Below are positions 22,792 through 31,546 of a DNA stretch of 64,000 bases, piece by piece. This DNA is from Gammaproteobacteria bacterium (GTDB lineage Bacteria > Pseudomonadota > Gammaproteobacteria > GCA-001735895). The position numbers and the translations under genes were made by a program. The stretch covers positions 2,976-66,975 of the forward strand of contig JBNKUM010000067.1 in assembly GCA_050298595.1 (NCBI GenBank), written 5' to 3'. The notes beneath the pieces are model-generated. The model was not told the origin of the DNA. It ran no database searches and worked only from the letters and a program-made list of their open reading frames with translations. How positions within the stretch are numbered: position 1 is the first letter of the stretch; each line of letters starts with the position of its first letter.

Positions 22792-23217
22792 TTAATCAGT
22801 ATCGCGCACCTTCGAACGCAGATTTTTGATCTGTCCTTTATGAGTTTTTGAATCCATACGTTTTCGTTTTGCCGCTCTGGAGGGTTTAGTTGCAATTCGC
22901 TTCTTCTGACTGATGTTGACACTCTTTATCAATTCAGCCAATCGAGCGAATGCATCATCACGATTTTTTTCCTGAGTCCGATATCGTTGCGCCTTAATCA
23001 CTATGACGCCTTCTTTACTGATACGTTTATCCTTCAGATTAAGCAGGCGCTGTTTATAAAAGTCAGGCAGGGACGAACTTTCAATATCAAAGCGGCAATG
23101 TATCGCACTGGAAACCTTATTGACGTTCTGGCCACCTGGACCCTGTGCGCGGATGGCTTCGAGCTCTATCTCGGTTTCGGGCAGTGAAACGTTAGAAGAA
23201 ATCTTTAACGCAATCAT
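22792..23217 (-). CDS. arfB: Alternative ribosome-rescue factor / peptidyl-tRNA hydrolase ArfB (YaeJ)
   Basis: 141 aa with GGQ motif (GPGGQNVNKVSSAI) and a basic C-terminal tail (KPSRAAKRKRMDSKTHKGQIKNLR). Confidence 0.9.
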   Translation of the reverse strand: MIALKISSNVSLPETEIELEAIRAQGPGGQNVNKVSSAIHCRFDIESSSLPDFYKQRLLNLKDKRISKEGVIVIKAQRYRTQEKNRDDAFARLAELIKSVNISQKKRIATKPSRAAKRKRMDSKTHKGQIKNLRSKVRDTD

Positions 23218-23271: not shown

Positions 23272-24741
23272 TCATTCTCCACGCTGTTGATCAATACGTC
23301 GTCTGAACGAAGCCATAATGCTTTTATATAACTGATGCCCCAACACCTTGTCTTCTACTTCGGAATCTATACTGGGGTTATCATTCACTTCGATCACAAA
23401 TACACCCGCATCGGTTTCTTTTAGATCTACTCCATATAGACCATCACCAATCAGGTTAGCTGCTTTGACTGCGGTCTTAACTACCTTTTTGGGTGCAGCT
23501 TCTATGGTCATAGTTTCAAAGTCACCGCTATAGTTTTCACCTGCCGCATGATCGTAGATTTGCCAATGTCCGGAAGACATCATGTATTTACACACAAACA
23601 GAGGTTTACGATCGAGTACTCCTACGCGCCAGTCATAATCTGTGTACATGTATTCCTGCGCGAGGATAAGGTCAGAATCGCGAAACAGCTTTTGACAGGT
23701 AGATTTCAGCTCTTTTAAGTTTTCAGCCTTGTAAACACCACGAGAAAAGGAGCCGTCGGGTATCTTTAGAATAATAGGGAAACTAATATCCTTACTGAGT
23801 TGCTTTTCCTGACCCTTGCTCAGGATTAATGTCTTTGGTGTCGGCACCTTATTGGCACGTAATAATTCTTCCAGAAACACCTTGTTAGTACAGCGCAATA
23901 TCGAATCAGGATCATCCATCACCACCAGTCCTTCATTCTGCGCCCGGCGCGCAAAACGAAAGGTATGGTGATCTATGGAAGTCGTTTCACGAATAAACAG
24001 GGCATCATATTCAGCAATGCGACCGTAATCTTTTTTAGTGATCAATTCTGCGGACATGCCTGACTCGTTTGCCGCCTTAATAAAGCACCCGAGTGCCTCT
24101 GCATCTGATGGCGGTAATTTCTCCGCTGGATTGTGCAAGATTGCCAGTTCATATTTATATTGGCGCTGAGCTTTTGGTTTACGCCAGGGTTTACTCAGAT
24201 AAGCCTGTAACGCTGAGACAAAAGTAATCTTTTCCTGATCATCAAGAGACTTGAGTGAAACTGGCCGAACATCTTCTATCCTCCAACCTTTTTTATACCT
24301 GAAATCTACTCGCAGTAAAGGCGTACTAAAGATCTCAAAAATCTGTTGCCCCAGTTCCTGTAACTCAGGAATAGAGGAACGACCAAACATCACTTTGATT
24401 TTCAGGCGTGTTATTTCCGAAGATAGTCCTTTTTTACTGATGGCTTTTTCCACCTGGTTTTCAAGATTTCGTGTCATCAGGCTATAGATAGAGCGTCGAC
24501 TCAAATCCTGAATAGTGCGCACCGACGGTATTACCTTATGGTTCCTGGCTTCGGCTAGCAGTGAACAGTAATAGCCCAGACTGGCATAGCGATGACTGCG
24601 ACACAGATTGACGATGCGCAAGCGCTGCTCGGGGGGATAGCTTTTGCCTGTCAGGTATTCATTTACGGTAATCACTTTCAGATCCGGAAATTGCTTAGGC
24701 CAGTGTGACAGCTTTTCGACGATGACTATGTGCTCTGACAT
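23272..24741 (-). CDS. RimK-like ATP-grasp ligase with long N-terminal domain
   Basis: 489 aa. The C-terminal ~290 aa look like a RimK/glutathione-synthetase-type ATP-grasp (PIILKIPDGSFSRGV, LILAQEYMYTDYDWRV, GVDLKETDAGVFVIEVNDNP). The N-terminal ~200 aa fit the RimK-like N-terminal (RLAN) position; this needs an HMM check. Confidence 0.75.
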   Translation of the reverse strand: MSEHIVIVEKLSHWPKQFPDLKVITVNEYLTGKSYPPEQRLRIVNLCRSHRYASLGYYCSLLAEARNHKVIPSVRTIQDLSRRSIYSLMTRNLENQVEKAISKKGLSSEITRLKIKVMFGRSSIPELQELGQQIFEIFSTPLLRVDFRYKKGWRIEDVRPVSLKSLDDQEKITFVSALQAYLSKPWRKPKAQRQYKYELAILHNPAEKLPPSDAEALGCFIKAANESGMSAELITKKDYGRIAEYDALFIRETTSIDHHTFRFARRAQNEGLVVMDDPDSILRCTNKVFLEELLRANKVPTPKTLILSKGQEKQLSKDISFPIILKIPDGSFSRGVYKAENLKELKSTCQKLFRDSDLILAQEYMYTDYDWRVGVLDRKPLFVCKYMMSSGHWQIYDHAAGENYSGDFETMTIEAAPKKVVKTAVKAANLIGDGLYGVDLKETDAGVFVIEVNDNPSIDSEVEDKVLGHQLYKSIMASFRRRIDQQRGE

Positions 24742-24762
24742 TCTTTTTCTCAGCCCGGGTAA

Positions 24763-25866
24763 TTATTTTTTGTGGTTATTCGAAATCAATACGACAGCCT
24801 GCAGGCCAGAACGACCGAAACGTGCCATGCGTGAGAACTCCCTGCGCGGGATAGCGATATTGATTGAGTCAGTTGGTGTTTCTCCTTCCTCACGATCAAC
24901 AAAAGGGTCATTCACGTATACCAGATGCTGGTCAAATCCACAAACGACTACCCAGTGAGGATTCTTTTCACCATAAATACGGTAAGAACTGATCAGTACA
25001 ATCGGAATCGCACCTGAGTTAAGCCTGGCTTCCATCTCCGGTTGTTCCAGGTTCTGGTAATGCACCGGGATCTGGTAATCTTTGATCTCCCCCAGCATCT
25101 CTTCATGTACCAGACGCATGACTTCTTTCTTTTCTGGGCTACGTACTGTTTCCACAAATGGCACGCCCTGATCATTAACATGAATAACTGCATTGAATCC
25201 ACGCTTATGAGCCGCTAGCGCCAGACCAAAGGGGCCGCAGCCGCCATGGCCGGATGTCATAAATATCGTAGTCGCTTCACGCCATAGACGGATTTCCAGT
25301 GTTCTATCCAGTGTCAATTCAGGTTGCAGACTTTTCATTGCCATCATCAAAGCAGAAGCACCGCAGGTAAATTCCAGTGTCTGCTCGTAAAAAGGCATAT
25401 TGGCTAATTGTGGAGGCTGATCTGGTTGCAGGCTTTTCTCGAAGCGTAGTGCGGGCATATGATCTTCATAATAATCTGCCAGTACGCCAAAGCGATGGTA
25501 GCCCAGTCCTTCAAACAGTCGCAATGACGCAGCATTGTCTTCTCGTATTTCAAGGCGAATATAAAAACGTCCCTGATCACGTGCCGCGGTTTCGGCAGCA
25601 TTGACCAGCCGCCTGCCTATTCCCATGCCACGAGCGCGTTCCTCGATGGCAATAGAATACAGACGTGCAACCGAGGTTGCCCGGTTATATAGCACCATGA
25701 CATATCCAGCCAGCCCTTCATTATCTTCAGATAACAGTATATCCGCATGAGAGCGGGTCAGCAGATAACGCCATTGTCGACGTGAAATCAGGTCTGTCTC
25801 GAAACAACGTTTTTCTATACCCGTGAGCTGGTCAATATCAGAAAGTTTGGCAGGGCGGATCAACAA
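24763..25866 (-). CDS. GNAT N-acetyltransferase fused to papain-like (C39-like) peptidase domain
   Basis: 367 aa. N-terminal half is GNAT (ARGMGIGRRLVNAAE). C-terminal half has Cys (LEFTCGASALMMA), His (NPHWVVVCGF) and Asp (VYVNDP) in papain-fold order. Start is TTG. The 21-nt gap to the ATP-grasp gene suggests an operon. Confidence 0.75.
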   Translation of the reverse strand: MLIRPAKLSDIDQLTGIEKRCFETDLISRRQWRYLLTRSHADILLSEDNEGLAGYVMVLYNRATSVARLYSIAIEERARGMGIGRRLVNAAETAARDQGRFYIRLEIREDNAASLRLFEGLGYHRFGVLADYYEDHMPALRFEKSLQPDQPPQLANMPFYEQTLEFTCGASALMMAMKSLQPELTLDRTLEIRLWREATTIFMTSGHGGCGPFGLALAAHKRGFNAVIHVNDQGVPFVETVRSPEKKEVMRLVHEEMLGEIKDYQIPVHYQNLEQPEMEARLNSGAIPIVLISSYRIYGEKNPHWVVVCGFDQHLVYVNDPFVDREEGETPTDSINIAIPRREFSRMARFGRSGLQAVVLISNNHKK

Positions 25867-26155
25867 AGTATCGCAATTGGGATATTTAGAAATCTTATCT
25901 TAGCAACTTTGAATAAAAAGGAAATGGATATTTTTTAAAGTTGGAATAGCTACTATGACTGTTATTTTTGGCATTAAATTGAATTCCTGACCAATATGAA
26001 AATCCGATAAAACTACTTTTTTGTGATCGTGCTCGTTAAAATACAGCCTTAACCACCAGATGAACCACAACAGTGATCAGTTTTTTTATCTGTTACATGA
26101 TGCCGTATCGTAAGCAACCACACACTTTACTTGCAAAAGAACATCGGGGTTCCTG

Positions 26156-27286: not shown

Positions 27287-30100
27287 TTAGTCTTTCAATG
27301 CTTTTAATATGGTCGTGTAGTCAAAGTTCCTGGCGAGCTGAGTCAGTTTGCTCTGTAATTCCTGGTCGTGCATCGAAACCTGCTGGATGACCGCCTCAAT
27401 GCGCTTGGACTCCAGGCTTTCTAGCACTTCAACGAACTCATTGCGCAGTGCTTCAGGCAGGCTATTCAACATCTGCGGCGTTAACGATATATCCGGTTCT
27501 ATTACGTCTGATTCCACAGCGCTCTCATAAAGATATTTCACGCCTAGCTGTCTTGAAAGGCAATCATAAATCTCGCCCGGTCGGTAGGGCTTGCGCACAT
27601 AGTCATCCATGCCACTAGCAAGCATTTCGTCCCGCTCTTCGTCAAACGCCGATGCAGTCACTGCAGCAATCTTAACCTCCTTGCCACCCGCTAATTCACG
27701 GATGCGCCGTGTCGCCTGTATGCCATCCATCACAGGCATGCGTCTATCCATCCAGATGAAATGTGGATGCCAGCTCTCAAACAGTTGTACCCCCTGCTCA
27801 CCGTTCTCGGCTATCCTGACCTTAAAACCAACAGATTCCATAAACCTGCTCAGTAGCAACTGATTATCACGCTGGTCTTCCACGATCAAAATACGATACT
27901 CGCCCTGGTCAGGGGCCAGCGCCATCACTTCGTCCTTGACGATCACCTGCTCTGCCATAGTAATATCTGCCTCCTGTGCTTCAATCAGGGGTAGGTCGAG
28001 CCTGAACAACGAGCCTTTACCTGGAGCACTTTCCAGCCAGATATTCCCGCCCATCATCTTTACAAATTGACGCGTAATCGTTAATCCCAGCCCGGTGCCT
28101 TTATTGGTACCCTGTTCGCCAAGTTGCACAAAAGGCTCGAAAACCTTTTGCTGGTCTTCAACCGCTATGCCAATGCCAGTGTCCTCTACATCGATCAGCA
28201 GATGAGAGATCTTATTATCCTTTGTGTCCAGGCGTAGCGTGACCCCCCCCTGCTCAGTATTTTTGATGGCGTTGCTTACCAGATTGATCAGAATCTGCCG
28301 TAGACGGGCCTGATCACCGACAATGAAACGTGGGAATAGAGAACTCTGGTCGATCCTTAATTGCAGGCCTTTGTTGAAAGCACGTTGCTGCATCATGTCA
28401 ATAATATCGCGCACCAGAGTACCCAGATCGAAGGCTGCATTTTCCAGATTCACCTGTCCCGCTTCGATCTTGGCCATATCTAGCACATCGTTAATCAGCG
28501 CCAGCAGATGTTTACCGCTACGACTAATAATTTCGATGTTCTCACGCAGGGATTCGTGTAGTAATGGATTATTGGTCATGAGTTCGGAGAACCCGAGGAT
28601 GGCGTTCAGAGGTGTGCGAAGTTCATGACTCATATTGGCCAGGAAGGCACTCTTGGCACGGCTGGCTGATTCAGCGTGTTCCTTGGCAGATAGCAACTGC
28701 CGATTTGAATCGGCTAACTCGTGAGTACGTTCATTCACCTTTGCCTCCAGGCCCCCAATTAATGCATGCAATTGACCTGCAATATTATTAAAGACGGATG
28801 TCAGCTCACTGATTTCATCTTCCGATTGGGGTGCTATTGGATGCTGTAGATAACGTCTCAGAGCAATACGCTGGCTATACTCTCTATCTACTTCTTCTTC
28901 CACCATCTCAGGTTTCTCCAGACCCATCGCAGATACTGCCCTGGTAAGCGCCCTGATCGGTGCAACGATTCTACTGATCAAGGAGTATCCGACGGCACCT
29001 CCCAACACAAGAATAAACACAGACGCGGCAATAATGCCCATGACGGTTTGGCGGATGGTGGCAATGGTGTTTTCCCTCGAAAGTGCCTGACTCAGAATAA
29101 GCGAGCTACCATCCTCTGCTATCTGCCAGGGCATAGAAGCCTGGTAGTAGGAATCCCCTCCTATATTTACGGTATGCAACTGGATAAGCGGGTCTCTTTG
29201 CGCAGACAAAACTTCAGTTGGTGTAGCCAGATCTACCAATTGAACACGCTGCTGCCCATCTGCGGAGATAATAGCCGGCAACAAACCCGTCTTCTCAGTA
29301 AGATTTTGCAGAAAGCCTTTGTCAAATACCTGAGTAAAAACAAACATACCGATCCTGACCGGTAAGTCCTCCTGCGTTAGCTGGGCTTGCAAAGCTGTCG
29401 TAGGCGTGGCTATGCTCAGGTTTTCGGCAATGACTTCGTTAAAAGACTGGCGAATCATACCTTGAATCGGCACTATCACGTGCAGCTCGATAACCTCTTG
29501 TGCAGGAAAATCGAAGCTTACCGTCACCCTGTCCACATTGGGAAAGTGGCGATGGATTGATCCTGGCAGTGGGATTTCTGACCAGTTACGCCAGTCATCC
29601 AGCGGTACCTTACCATTTCTGTACTGCTGAATCCCAACCACCCTAGTTTGACTATCGTGTCGCTTTATCATGCCCGCCGCCTGCGGCGTCACAAAATGTG
29701 ACAGGTCATCATCTAGATACACCGCCACACTGGACAGGCGTGCGGAGAGCAGGATTAACTGTAAGCGGTTTAAGGATGTGACCCGGTTAAGACTTACAGC
29801 GCTGTCGAGAGGAGCGCTAGGTTGATTTTTCAGCTTGAGTAGCTGGCTGTATAAAACAGCCATATCGCTAAGATTCTTTTCGTCACGCGCGGCTTGCATA
29901 GACACATTAGACATACGGTTGCGCATTTCCTGTAGATCGTTTTGAAATACGATCAACTCACGTGACAATCGGTTATAGGCTTCTGCCTGACTCTCGCGGT
30001 TAATCAGGTATGAAGCCAGCAGGGCATTAAGCAGCGTAACCGCTAACAGAAATGCCGCAAAGATAGCCAGTAGCTTGTATTTAATACTTACAATTTTCAC
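27287..30100 (-). CDS. Hybrid sensor histidine kinase (HK1): periplasmic domain, HAMP, HisKA-HATPase, receiver, C-terminal extension
   Basis: 937 aa with two TM segments flanking a ~330-aa periplasmic region. [20 protein letters not shown]; GTGLGLTITRQF; receiver ILIVEDQRDNQ...MDRRMPVMDG. Paralogue of 31766..34588. Confidence 0.9.
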   Translation of the reverse strand: MKIVSIKYKLLAIFAAFLLAVTLLNALLASYLINRESQAEAYNRLSRELIVFQNDLQEMRNRMSNVSMQAARDEKNLSDMAVLYSQLLKLKNQPSAPLDSAVSLNRVTSLNRLQLILLSARLSSVAVYLDDDLSHFVTPQAAGMIKRHDSQTRVVGIQQYRNGKVPLDDWRNWSEIPLPGSIHRHFPNVDRVTVSFDFPAQEVIELHVIVPIQGMIRQSFNEVIAENLSIATPTTALQAQLTQEDLPVRIGMFVFTQVFDKGFLQNLTEKTGLLPAIISADGQQRVQLVDLATPTEVLSAQRDPLIQLHTVNIGGDSYYQASMPWQIAEDGSSLILSQALSRENTIATIRQTVMGIIAASVFILVLGGAVGYSLISRIVAPIRALTRAVSAMGLEKPEMVEEEVDREYSQRIALRRYLQHPIAPQSEDEISELTSVFNNIAGQLHALIGGLEAKVNERTHELADSNRQLLSAKEHAESASRAKSAFLANMSHELRTPLNAILGFSELMTNNPLLHESLRENIEIISRSGKHLLALINDVLDMAKIEAGQVNLENAAFDLGTLVRDIIDMMQQRAFNKGLQLRIDQSSLFPRFIVGDQARLRQILINLVSNAIKNTEQGGVTLRLDTKDNKISHLLIDVEDTGIGIAVEDQQKVFEPFVQLGEQGTNKGTGLGLTITRQFVKMMGGNIWLESAPGKGSLFRLDLPLIEAQEADITMAEQVIVKDEVMALAPDQGEYRILIVEDQRDNQLLLSRFMESVGFKVRIAENGEQGVQLFESWHPHFIWMDRRMPVMDGIQATRRIRELAGGKEVKIAAVTASAFDEERDEMLASGMDDYVRKPYRPGEIYDCLSRQLGVKYLYESAVESDVIEPDISLTPQMLNSLPEALRNEFVEVLESLESKRIEAVIQQVSMHDQELQSKLTQLARNFDYTTILKALKD

Positions 30101-30184: not shown

Positions 30185-31546
30185 CTACCGATGAGCATAA
30201 CCGTTATGATCTTGAATGTCCTGATCAATCTTTTCGGCTGCTTTACTGAGTTCGGCCTGCACATCAGCCCCTTTAATTATATTATCTACCGCCTCGGCGA
30301 AGACTTTGGTGATAGTTGCATAGGCTGGCGTGAGGGGACGAGGCACAGCCCAACCGGCTTCTATCTGTTGAACATACACGTTTAAAGGGCCACCTGGCTG
30401 GTAAAGCTCTGACCTGGCAAATGCCGATTTACGCGCCGGTACACCAGGGTGAATACCTGTCCAACGCACAATCTTGTCGGGTTGCAGAATATAGTCCAGG
30501 ATCGCCCAGCTCCCTTCAGGATTCTGGCAGGAGCTGGTGATACCAAAATTCCAGGCACCCAAACCAGTTTTGGGTCCATTGCCAAAGTCAGGCATGGGGA
30601 TGACAACCAAATCTTCGCCCAAAGCATCCGCATAGCTGCTATAGGTCCAGTGTCCTACCCAGGAAAGCGCCGCTTTGCCAGAAGCAAAATCCGTATCTCC
30701 CTGTGGGCTGGGGTTAGCCCAGCCCTTCTGGAACCAGCTCTGGAAATGCTGCATAGCTGTGACGGATTGAGGTCCATCCAGTACGCCTTTGGCAGACTGG
30801 TAGTTATTGCGATCAATCAAGTCACCGCCGAAAGACTGCAGGATGGGTGAAAAACCATAGGTAAAGAATTCACCGCGCCCATAGTTGATTTTCATATCCA
30901 GTGGATATTCAACGTCTGGGACGGCGGCCAGTTTTTCTAAAGCCGCTTCAAACTCAGCCAGATCCCATGGCTGCTGGATGGTAGGTATGCGCACGCCAGC
31001 TGCCTTTAGGTACTGGCGATTGCCATACATCGCCAGACCAGAGTCAACTATACCCAGTGTATACAGATTATTATTGTAGGTTCCCTGGGCAATGATAGAG
31101 GGCAGGAAATCGGCCTTCATCTGTGCTGACACAAAGCGGTCTATGGGTTGCAGGTAACCCAGCCAGGCCAGATATGAGACCATAGGTCCGTCAAAGAAAA
31201 GCAGGCAGGGCAGATCACCTGTGCGCCCGGCAGCCAGGATGCGGTCGGTGTAAATGCCTTCTGGCACCAGTGTCATCTCGGCTGAGTAGCGATCCTGCTC
31301 CTTGTTAAAGTCCTTCAGATTGAGTTCCATTGCTTTTAAGGCATTACCGGTACCGGCATTGAACCATACCGTCACGATTTGATTCCTGCTAACTGCGGCT
31401 GATGGAGGCTTAATCTTAGTGGGCGCTGGTTCAGGCGCTATACTGGCTGGTGGGCTTTTAGCAGTGGGTTCACTGGGTGGATCGCAAGCCGTTAGCACGG
31501 ATGCTAGCATGAATAAAATTATTAGATAACTAACCTTCTTGTGCAT
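30185..31546 (-). CDS. Orphan ABC-type (family 1, sugar/MalE-like) substrate-binding lipoprotein (SBP1)
   Basis: 453 aa. Lipobox LTAC followed by Asp at +2 and a Pro-rich linker. No permease or ATPase gene adjacent. 84 nt upstream of HK1. Confidence 0.8.
   Translation of the reverse strand: MHKKVSYLIILFMLASVLTACDPPSEPTAKSPPASIAPEPAPTKIKPPSAAVSRNQIVTVWFNAGTGNALKAMELNLKDFNKEQDRYSAEMTLVPEGIYTDRILAAGRTGDLPCLLFFDGPMVSYLAWLGYLQPIDRFVSAQMKADFLPSIIAQGTYNNNLYTLGIVDSGLAMYGNRQYLKAAGVRIPTIQQPWDLAEFEAALEKLAAVPDVEYPLDMKINYGRGEFFTYGFSPILQSFGGDLIDRNNYQSAKGVLDGPQSVTAMQHFQSWFQKGWANPSPQGDTDFASGKAALSWVGHWTYSSYADALGEDLVVIPMPDFGNGPKTGLGAWNFGITSSCQNPEGSWAILDYILQPDKIVRWTGIHPGVPARKSAFARSELYQPGGPLNVYVQQIEAGWAVPRPLTPAYATITKVFAEAVDNIIKGADVQAELSKAAEKIDQDIQDHNGYAHR

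Follow-up and report, generated by a model that had tools for sequence, protein, structure and literature searches.

A conserved two-gene system joining a GNAT/papain-fold fusion protein to an RLAN-containing RimK-type ligase in a gammaproteobacterial genome

Background

From ribosomes to cofactors, ATP-grasp ligases of the RimK type have been put to work on a broad assortment of acceptors: RimK acts on ribosomal protein S6, LysX and ArgX on LysW, MptN and CofF on cofactors and MyfB on methylofuran, and relatives of RimK polymerise glutamate (PMC8141765). In Pseudomonas, RimK is accompanied by a dedicated protease, RimB, with the poly-alpha-glutamate tail being trimmed and its synthesis stimulated; hybrid RimB-RimK proteins also exist (PMC10092738, PMC11957791). 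Here we analyse 64,000 nucleotides of DNA (the whole stretch, hereafter 'the window') from a gammaproteobacterium of the GCA-001735895 lineage (GenBank assembly GCA_050298595.1, contig JBNKUM010000067.1, positions 2,976 to 66,975 of the forward strand), in which two adjacent genes encode a GNAT acetyltransferase fused to a papain-fold domain and a RimK-type ligase with an extra N-terminal domain.

The same kinds of activity meet in other settings. In Escherichia coli, RimK and RimI are the enzymes that modify S6 and S18. In the mammalian N-acetylaspartate/N-acetylaspartylglutamate (NAA/NAAG) pathway, the acetyltransferase NAT8L acts first, RIMKLA or RIMKLB of the RimK family then adds glutamate to the N-acetylated amino acid, and glutamate carboxypeptidase II, a metalloenzyme, degrades the product. 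The cassette for N-acetylglutaminylglutamine amide (NAGGN), an N-acetylated dipeptide, has a peptidase gene in its TIGR03103 'trio', a GNAT fused to the ligase, and a requirement for an amidotransferase.

A conserved gene pair

The system consists of two tightly linked genes on the minus strand of the window:

24763..25866, minus strand: gene 1, a fusion of GNAT and DUF3335 (C39-like papain-fold) domains, 367 amino acids (open reading frame, Pfam, NCBIfam)
24742..24762, minus strand: intergenic spacer of 21 nucleotides with a weak GAGA-type ribosome-binding site (sequence)
23272..24741, minus strand: gene 2, RLAN plus a RimK-type ATP-grasp carboxylate-amine ligase, 489 amino acids (open reading frame, Pfam, NCBIfam)

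This layout, with gene 2 lying 21 nucleotides downstream of gene 1 on the same strand, is as described in a first-pass annotation made from the letters of the sequence: both open reading frames were recovered at the positions it gave, and the motifs it quoted (FTCGASAL, NPHWVVVCGF and VNDP) are all in the 367-residue translation. Its domain calls, a GNAT with a Cys/His/Asp papain fold and a RimK-type ATP-grasp enzyme with an N-terminal domain of ~200 residues, agree with Pfam, and the profile assignment that it proposed as a check, once run, matched Acetyltransf_1, DUF3335/PF11814, RLAN/PF14401 and RimK/PF08443. Terminator prediction on the minus strand between 22700 and 26300 returned none, and with no terminator at the spacer the pair is taken as an operon. 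No signal-like hydrophobic N-terminus is visible in the 367-residue sequence. A second contig, JBNLFE010000015.1 (GCA_050305375.1), matches the window, with an identical 367-residue protein and the same gene order.

The start codon of gene 1 is a TTG at 25866, with 25863 as an alternative. In the closest relative (locus L001) the second TTG is preceded by a TAG stop, and translation in the window may accordingly begin at 25863 instead of 25866. The sequence directly before the TTG, TTGCGATACTT (25861..25880 in the window, just upstream of 8001 in L001), is common to both, and the remaining upstream region differs.

How firmly the two genes belong together was examined across loci drawn from one genome per species. 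At least 568 loci contain a relative of the GNAT-C39 protein (that is, of the gene 1 product), and the best 80, at 52-87% identity, were examined; they come mostly from Chromatiales, Ectothiorhodospirales, Competibacteraceae and Thiohalomonadales, with some Betaproteobacteria and Acidobacteriota. In 74 of the 80 the ligase gene is the next one downstream, on the same strand, and three more (L044, L052, L062) have it adjacent in another orientation, giving adjacency in 77 of 80, a pairing far beyond chance. Among the others, L053 is truncated yet retains the start of the ligase gene, and L058 and L078 have no ligase gene within 8 kb downstream. Measured in 72 loci, the gap between the gene 1 stop and the gene 2 start has a median of 1 nucleotide, and the genes overlap by 8, 4 or 1 nucleotides in 33 of these; this spacing points to translational coupling as a frequent property of the pair. 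A 34th negative value belongs to L024, where a single open reading frame of 833 amino acids (L024:8055-10556) holds GNAT, C39, RLAN and ATP-grasp domains in one frame. Because that contig also has a frameshift near the GNAT N-terminus, the four-domain fusion may be an assembly artefact.

Searches that started from the ligase or from distant homologues found the pair again in Mesorhizobium opportunistum, Aquamicrobium and Azospirillum brasilense, as well as in a complete genome from Burkholderiales and a contig from Verrucomicrobiales. Across Alpha-, Beta- and Gammaproteobacteria, Verrucomicrobiales and Acidobacteriota the module is conserved at 43-65% identity. The two genes form one functional unit. 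The first-pass annotation had said as much, naming loss of the neighbourhood in other genomes as counter-evidence and proposing a census; run on the 80 loci, the census found the ligase adjoining the GNAT-C39 gene in 77, and adjacency is kept across several phyla.

The families themselves are large. The GNAT-C39 protein has more than 5,700 homologous clusters at 90% identity and the ligase at least 8,000, whereas at 50% clustering DUF3335 is compact, with 651 representatives at E<=1e-3, of which 108 pass E<=1e-30. Full-length representatives are mostly GNAT-fused, 355-400 residues long, with DUF3335 at the C-terminus. Four proteins of 411-471 residues (P0320, P0335, P0342 and P0385) each hold two DUF3335 stretches and no GNAT match, which suggests a tandem DUF3335-DUF3335 architecture in their sequences. 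An apparent standalone form, P0267, was rejected as most likely a shortened gene call, since proteins 94-96% identical to it are GNAT fusions of 366 residues. Genuine standalone DUF3335 was seen only as a distant homologue (33% identity) on a Sinorhizobium plasmid, a 'peptidase C39 family protein' at L090:7004-7672 (S. meliloti AK83, pSINME02). Its gene is the last in an ABC transporter operon with a substrate-binding protein, two ATPases and two permeases, and no ligase gene is nearby; that position would suit a cytoplasmic peptidase whose substrates are brought in from outside.

Both proteins are also already named by NCBI, as 'RimK family protein' and 'GNAT family N-acetyltransferase/peptidase C39 family protein'. 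To speak of a 'different architecture', as the first-pass annotation did, thus overstates the novelty of proteins that sit in established Pfam families with thousands of homologues: the copy in the window is an ordinary, typical member of a widespread, catalogued two-gene system.

Domains and predicted catalytic residues

The features of the gene 1 product, in order from its N-terminus, are as follows:

25432..25866, minus strand: GNAT domain, residues ~1-145, closest to protein N-alpha-acetyltransferases (RimI, Ard1/Naa10/Naa30)
24784..25398, minus strand: DUF3335/C39-like papain-fold domain, a cysteine peptidase or transacylase, residues 157-361
25381..25383, minus strand: Gln162, predicted oxyanion-hole residue six positions ahead of the catalytic Cys; invariant
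25363..25365, minus strand: Cys168 (in FTCG), predicted nucleophile at a helix N-terminus in the model, where the helix starts at domain residue 19 (Cys168); invariant
25231..25266, minus strand: Gly-rich loop FMTSGHGGCGPF, residues 201-212, with His207 and a second Cys, Cys210; conserved in 97 sequences
24955..24957, minus strand: His304 (in PHWVV), predicted catalytic His at the start of a beta-strand (model strand E154-162); invariant
24907..24909, minus strand: Asp320 (in V-N/H-D-P), predicted third member of the triad, after model strand E166-170; invariant

Pfam places Acetyltransf_1 at residues 22-123 (E=8e-16, 58.8 bits) and DUF3335, the 'Peptidase_C39 like family', at residues 157-361 (E=8.5e-88, 293.6 bits), the latter covering profile positions 1-205 of 206. 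The acetyl-CoA loop of the GNAT domain, R79-G-x-G82-x-G84, is kept, with R79 and G82 invariant and G80 conserved at 90% or more. RimI is the best-scoring family (TIGR01575, 67.8 bits) yet falls under its cut-off of 86.4, and the best sequence matches in the PDB are Ard1 (4pv6, 1.3e-9) and Naa30 (6zmp and 7l1k).

In the papain-fold half, two alignments, one of 14 and one of 97 sequences, show no variation at Gln162, Cys168, His304 or Asp320. A Gln six residues before the Cys is as in papain, and its oxyanion-hole role is predicted from papain-fold enzymes in general. In an AlphaFold2 model of residues 150-367 (pLDDT 88, pTM 0.89) a helix begins at Cys168, and His304 and Asp320 lie on successive strands, which is the papain arrangement. 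In the loop FMTSGHGGCGPF, F202, M203, S205, G206, H207, G208, G209, C210, G211 and P212 are invariant across the 97 sequences and T204 is conserved at 90% or more; the only run of at least three residues to fall under pLDDT 50 (domain residues 52-59) is part of it, which marks the loop as flexible in the model.

The domain has no match to PF03412, the bacteriocin-processing C39 peptidases, its match to C39_2 (PF13529) spans just 46 residues at 25.5 bits (cut-off 24), and a PDB sequence search gave a single marginal match, 3erv (E=0.0025). In contrast to the C39 domains of bacteriocin and peptidase-containing (PCAT) ABC transporters, it has no transporter fusion, no double-glycine precursor is linked to it, and it carries family-specific insertions, namely the FMTSGHGGCGP loop and a conserved helix at about residues 242-260.

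The ligase falls into two halves:

24217..24663, minus strand: RLAN domain, residues 27-175, modelled as a shortened ATP-grasp module that comprises the pre-ATP-grasp region and some of the central one, without ATP/Mg motifs
23362..24057, minus strand: catalytic ATP-grasp domain of the RimK/LysX branch, residues ~229-460, containing ILKIPDGSFSRGV, AQEY, DWRVGV, GVDLK and IEVNDNP

Both are well supported by Pfam, RLAN (PF14401) at residues 27-175 (E=1.2e-49, 168.2 bits, cut-off 25) and the RimK ATP-grasp domain (PF08443) at residues 286-460 (E=7.5e-12, 45.7 bits, cut-off 21). Across 119 sequences the Lys/Gly-rich loop, the QEY hinge and the DxR, Mg-binding D and ExN motifs are conserved at 90% or more, and the ATP-grasp half aligns along its length to LysX (1uc8) and to Pseudomonas aeruginosa RimK (7qyr). 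The best NCBIfam scores all lie under their cut-offs: 83 bits for rimK_fam (TIGR00768, cut-off 143.4), 82 for LysX and 59 for MptN. A PDB sequence search found no solved RLAN structure; the model suggests a shortened, probably inactive ATP-grasp-like module, in which cysteines C47 and C59 are near-invariant. RLAN was reportedly defined by Iyer et al. in 2009 (Mol Biosyst), who are also reported to have predicted this gene neighbourhood. The Klebsiella enzyme CfmP, considered as a relative, was set aside as a TupA-like ATP-grasp enzyme unrelated to the ligase. Taken by their sequences, both the GNAT-C39 protein and the ligase appear to be active enzymes.

A possible add, trim and cap module

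By analogy with RimK and RimB, we tentatively favour, with slightly less than even confidence, a reading of the pair as a self-contained, co-translated, cytoplasmic module that would add to, trim and cap a peptide linkage. The ligase would attach an amino acid, singly or in repeated rounds, to the carboxylate at the C-terminus of an acceptor; L-glutamate is the most likely, because every characterised close relative of the ligase either ligates glutamate or acts on a glutamate carboxylate. RLAN, as a catalytically dead ATP-grasp-like module in the models, would probably dock the acceptor or a partner protein. The papain-fold domain, with its Gln-Cys-His-Asp set intact, would cleave the chain made or extended by the ligase, limiting or releasing it and setting its length, as RimB does for RimK. 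The RimI/Naa-like GNAT would acetylate an alpha-amino group, most probably that of an amino terminus which the adjoining peptidase domain exposes or recognises. As the acceptor is not encoded beside the pair, it must be a common metabolite or be encoded elsewhere: a ubiquitous small molecule (glutamate, N-acetylglutamate or a short acidic peptide) or a conserved protein terminus. We lean slightly towards a peptide or protein terminus.

The closest precedent is the RimK-RimB(-RimA) system of Pseudomonas, which likewise couples a RimK-family ligase genetically to a dedicated protease in adding and trimming alpha-glutamyl chains, with fusions of ligase and protease (PMC4741518, PMC11957791). The differences are nonetheless considerable. 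The protease of the pair is a papain-fold cysteine enzyme rather than a retropepsin and has a GNAT fused to it, and the ligase, with its additional RLAN domain, scores far below the RimK equivalog cut-off (NF007764, 23.7 bits against 331). Among the closest ATP-grasp relatives in sequence and structure are LysX and ArgX, which ligate an amino acid to the C-terminal glutamate of a small protein, LysW; the pair has neither a LysW-like carrier gene nor the downstream biosynthetic genes.

A rather different use of the papain fold is found in the biosynthesis of closthioamide (CtaD/CtaG) and butirosin (BtrJ/BtrH), where an ATP-grasp ligase is joined by a papain-fold enzyme with a Cys-His-Asp set, related to PF11814 by HHpred; CtaG, assigned by HHpred to PF11814 and BtrH, is a transacylase partnering an iterative ATP-grasp enzyme (PMC7183216). 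By this token the domain in the pair could be a transacylase or transpeptidase that loads Cys168 with an acyl or peptidyl group and then transfers this group to an amine, together with the ATP-grasp enzyme and in the manner of CtaG/CtaD, BtrH/BtrJ or phytochelatin synthase and glutathione. More speculatively, C47 and C59 of RLAN and the loop with the invariant Cys210 could carry thioesters. The characterised systems, however, are large clusters thiotemplated on carrier proteins, whereas here there are two genes and no carrier-protein gene recurs near them: among open reading frames of at least 70 amino acids, peptidyl or acyl carrier proteins were found neither in gene clusters shared by at least three loci nor in five Pfam-annotated contexts. 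The top structural matches of the domain, moreover, are hydrolases (PeiR, C39 leader peptidases and 3erv). We regard the transacylase route as distinctly unlikely.

To return to the add, trim and cap module, several points weigh against it. Glutamate specificity is extrapolated from relatives whose curated NCBIfam cut-offs the ligase in every case fails to reach, and 'trimming' may be the wrong word, as papain-fold relatives include the transacylases CtaG and BtrH and the phytochelatin-synthase-like Alr0975. The view of RLAN comes from AlphaFold2 models and structure comparisons only; profile comparison by hhalign of RLAN with the ligase's own ATP-grasp half gave a probability of 1%, that is, no profile support. 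Acetylation may come first or last among the steps. Our census is biased towards the 80 best-scoring of at least 568 loci, all at 52% identity or more, and the literature searched yielded no experimental study of the RLAN or DUF3335 families.

Neighbouring genes and what they suggest

All-against-all clustering of the open reading frames around the pair in the 80 loci, in which greedy calling produced antisense shadow frames in high-GC loci (clusters 3 and 4, disregarded), found no third partner gene that is universal or recurs across lineages. The most frequent neighbours are argE (acetylornithine deacetylase) in 19 loci and argA (N-acetylglutamate synthase) in 8, both divergent (for example L020:1830-3080 for argE and L019:5322-6668 for argA) and both limited to related Gammaproteobacteria (Chromatiaceae, Ectothiorhodospiraceae, Competibacter and relatives). 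Their position could be synteny, or a hint of N-acetylglutamate chemistry.

One alternative is a small-molecule route resembling those to NAAG and NAGGN, in which the GNAT would N-acetylate glutamate, aspartate or glutamine, the ligase would add glutamate to give an N-acetylated di- or oligopeptide osmolyte or store, and the peptidase would recycle it. The same three activities come together in the NAGGN cassette and in the mammalian pathway of NAT8L and RIMKLA, and the lack of any substrate-protein gene linked to the pair would suit such a product, as would the argA and argE neighbours. The comparison with mammals, though, is one of logic only, the degrading peptidase there being a metalloenzyme. 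As to Ngg/AsnO and NAGGN, to which the first-pass annotation had likened the pair, GNAT and ATP-grasp chemistry are shared, but the GNAT of the pair is fused to the peptidase; TIGR03103 reaches 24 bits, through the GNAT domain only, where its cut-off is 569, and no amidotransferase is among the recurrent neighbours, so that the pair is not an NAGGN system. The best matches of the GNAT are protein N-terminal rather than amino-acid acetyltransferases, a docking-type RLAN would be superfluous for a free amino acid, and the linkage to argA and argE is absent from the window. On balance this route is unlikely.

Other neighbours recur less often: a gene for an RsmB/F-like methyltransferase in 11 of the 80 loci (Chromatiaceae and relatives), a YpfJ-like Zn peptidase in 6, DUF155 in 5 and a LysR regulator in 5. 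The DUF155 (RMND1/Sif2-like) gene flanks the pair, upstream in L051, L058 and L076 and downstream in L079 (10571-11377) and L080 (5095-5901). In Rhizobiales the pair comes after rnc-era-recO, with YgfZ-like genes also among the neighbours, and in a Burkholderiales genome (CP070753.1) a YbaK/ProX-type tRNA_edit gene follows the ligase (L084:8517-9011), with tsaD nearby.

In three loci two RimK-type systems stand side by side. L079:11459-13874 holds a RimB-like retropepsin (PF05618), a RimK of 301 amino acids (Rimk_N plus RimK, 230 bits) and an AstE/AspA-like deacylase beside the pair, and clustering identifies the same genes at L080:5995-8401 and L060:3010-5439; across the three the cluster lies directly downstream of the pair or a few kb from it. 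The RLAN-ligase is not, then, the only RimK-type enzyme of these genomes, and is a paralogue of RimK rather than a substitute for it. The proximity of the two hints at related chemistry.

On the side of the ribosome, a module can be envisaged in which S6, or some other ribosomal protein, is glutamylated by the ligase and has its tail trimmed by the peptidase, with the GNAT acetylating S18 or a neighbour. The best family matches of the two proteins are RimK and RimI, the canonical RimB-RimK cluster adjoins the pair in the three loci above, and translation-related genes are near it in several lineages (arfB in the window, the RsmB/F-like and DUF155 genes, tRNA_edit in Burkholderiales, and era/rnc and YgfZ-like genes in Rhizobiales). 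Yet both proteins fall below the corresponding cut-offs (NF007764 and TIGR01575, as given above), and a canonical RimK in genomes that also carry the pair leaves the RLAN-ligase as a paralogue with, presumably, another target. Translation genes are also common in core-genome regions, where such a pattern may arise by chance, and the arfB and rlmC linkages are limited to the immediate lineage. We consider a ribosomal role very unlikely.

The immediate surroundings of the pair in the window are:

22792..23217: arfB (NF006718, 193 bits)
25900..25974, minus strand: open reading frame of 24 codons, the tail of a TTG-initiated frame of 56 amino acids
26156..27283: rlmC (TIGR02085, 476 bits)

The names arfB and rlmC, already given in the first-pass annotation, are confirmed by NCBIfam, and its caution that their proximity may be coincidence was well placed, as the linkage is not kept beyond the immediate lineage: arfB follows the pair elsewhere only in L001 (in L030 it lies at a distance on the other strand), and rlmC is next to the pair only in the same species. 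A functional link of either gene with the pair was rejected, and their position is treated as lineage synteny. With no minus-strand terminator between the ligase gene and arfB, the latter may be co-transcribed in the window, a lineage-specific detail. Next to rlmC, two large hybrid histidine kinase/response-regulator genes flank a gene for a periplasmic solute-binding protein (27287..30100 and 30185..31546, both on the minus strand, and a gene upstream, L081:1-101), unrelated to the pair.

The small upstream frame bears on a last alternative, that of a cluster for a ribosomally synthesised and post-translationally modified peptide (RiPP) of the graspetide kind, with the 24-codon frame as the precursor gene. 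ATP-grasp, GNAT and C39-type activities do co-occur in microviridin-type clusters, and the frame has a plausible ribosome-binding site. The components of graspetide systems have been listed (PMC8939145), and the likeness drawn to them in the first-pass annotation does not stand: a conserved precursor is missing, and the ligase belongs to the RimK/LysX rather than the macrocyclase type. The one further ATP-grasp system model with a match, grasp_GAK, reaches 17 bits against 300. A tblastn search against all loci found the frame only in near-identical contigs of the same species (L081-L083); in L001, whose GNAT-C39 protein is 87% identical, the region upstream of the pair is unrelated and lacks it. 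The peptide has no acidic or Ser/Thr/Lys-rich core, and no transporter gene recurs next to the pair in the 80 loci. The frame, rated from the outset as a very weak candidate, was accordingly rejected as a precursor, and the graspetide explanation is effectively refuted. Models of anti-phage defence from PADLOC gave chance-level matches only (E=0.002-0.004).

Significance

The interest of the pair lies in the product of the family and not in the copy found in the window. A more novel reading, possible but doubtful, is a stand-alone, carrier-free machine for building and editing peptides, which might yield an N-acetylated oligo-alpha-glutamyl peptide (a bacterial counterpart of NAAG) or a trimmed, acetyl-capped glutamyl tag on a conserved protein other than S6, with RLAN and the flexible loop acting as substrate-docking or acyl-relay elements. 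If true, such a product class would be new to bacteria. The system comprises only two genes and no linked substrate, and is therefore easy to express and test, and its carriers include tractable organisms such as Mesorhizobium and Azospirillum brasilense. Identification of the product would give a function to two Pfam families, RLAN and DUF3335, and would reveal whether RimK-type chemistry in bacteria extends past ribosomal protein S6, be it for a new metabolite or for a protein tag.

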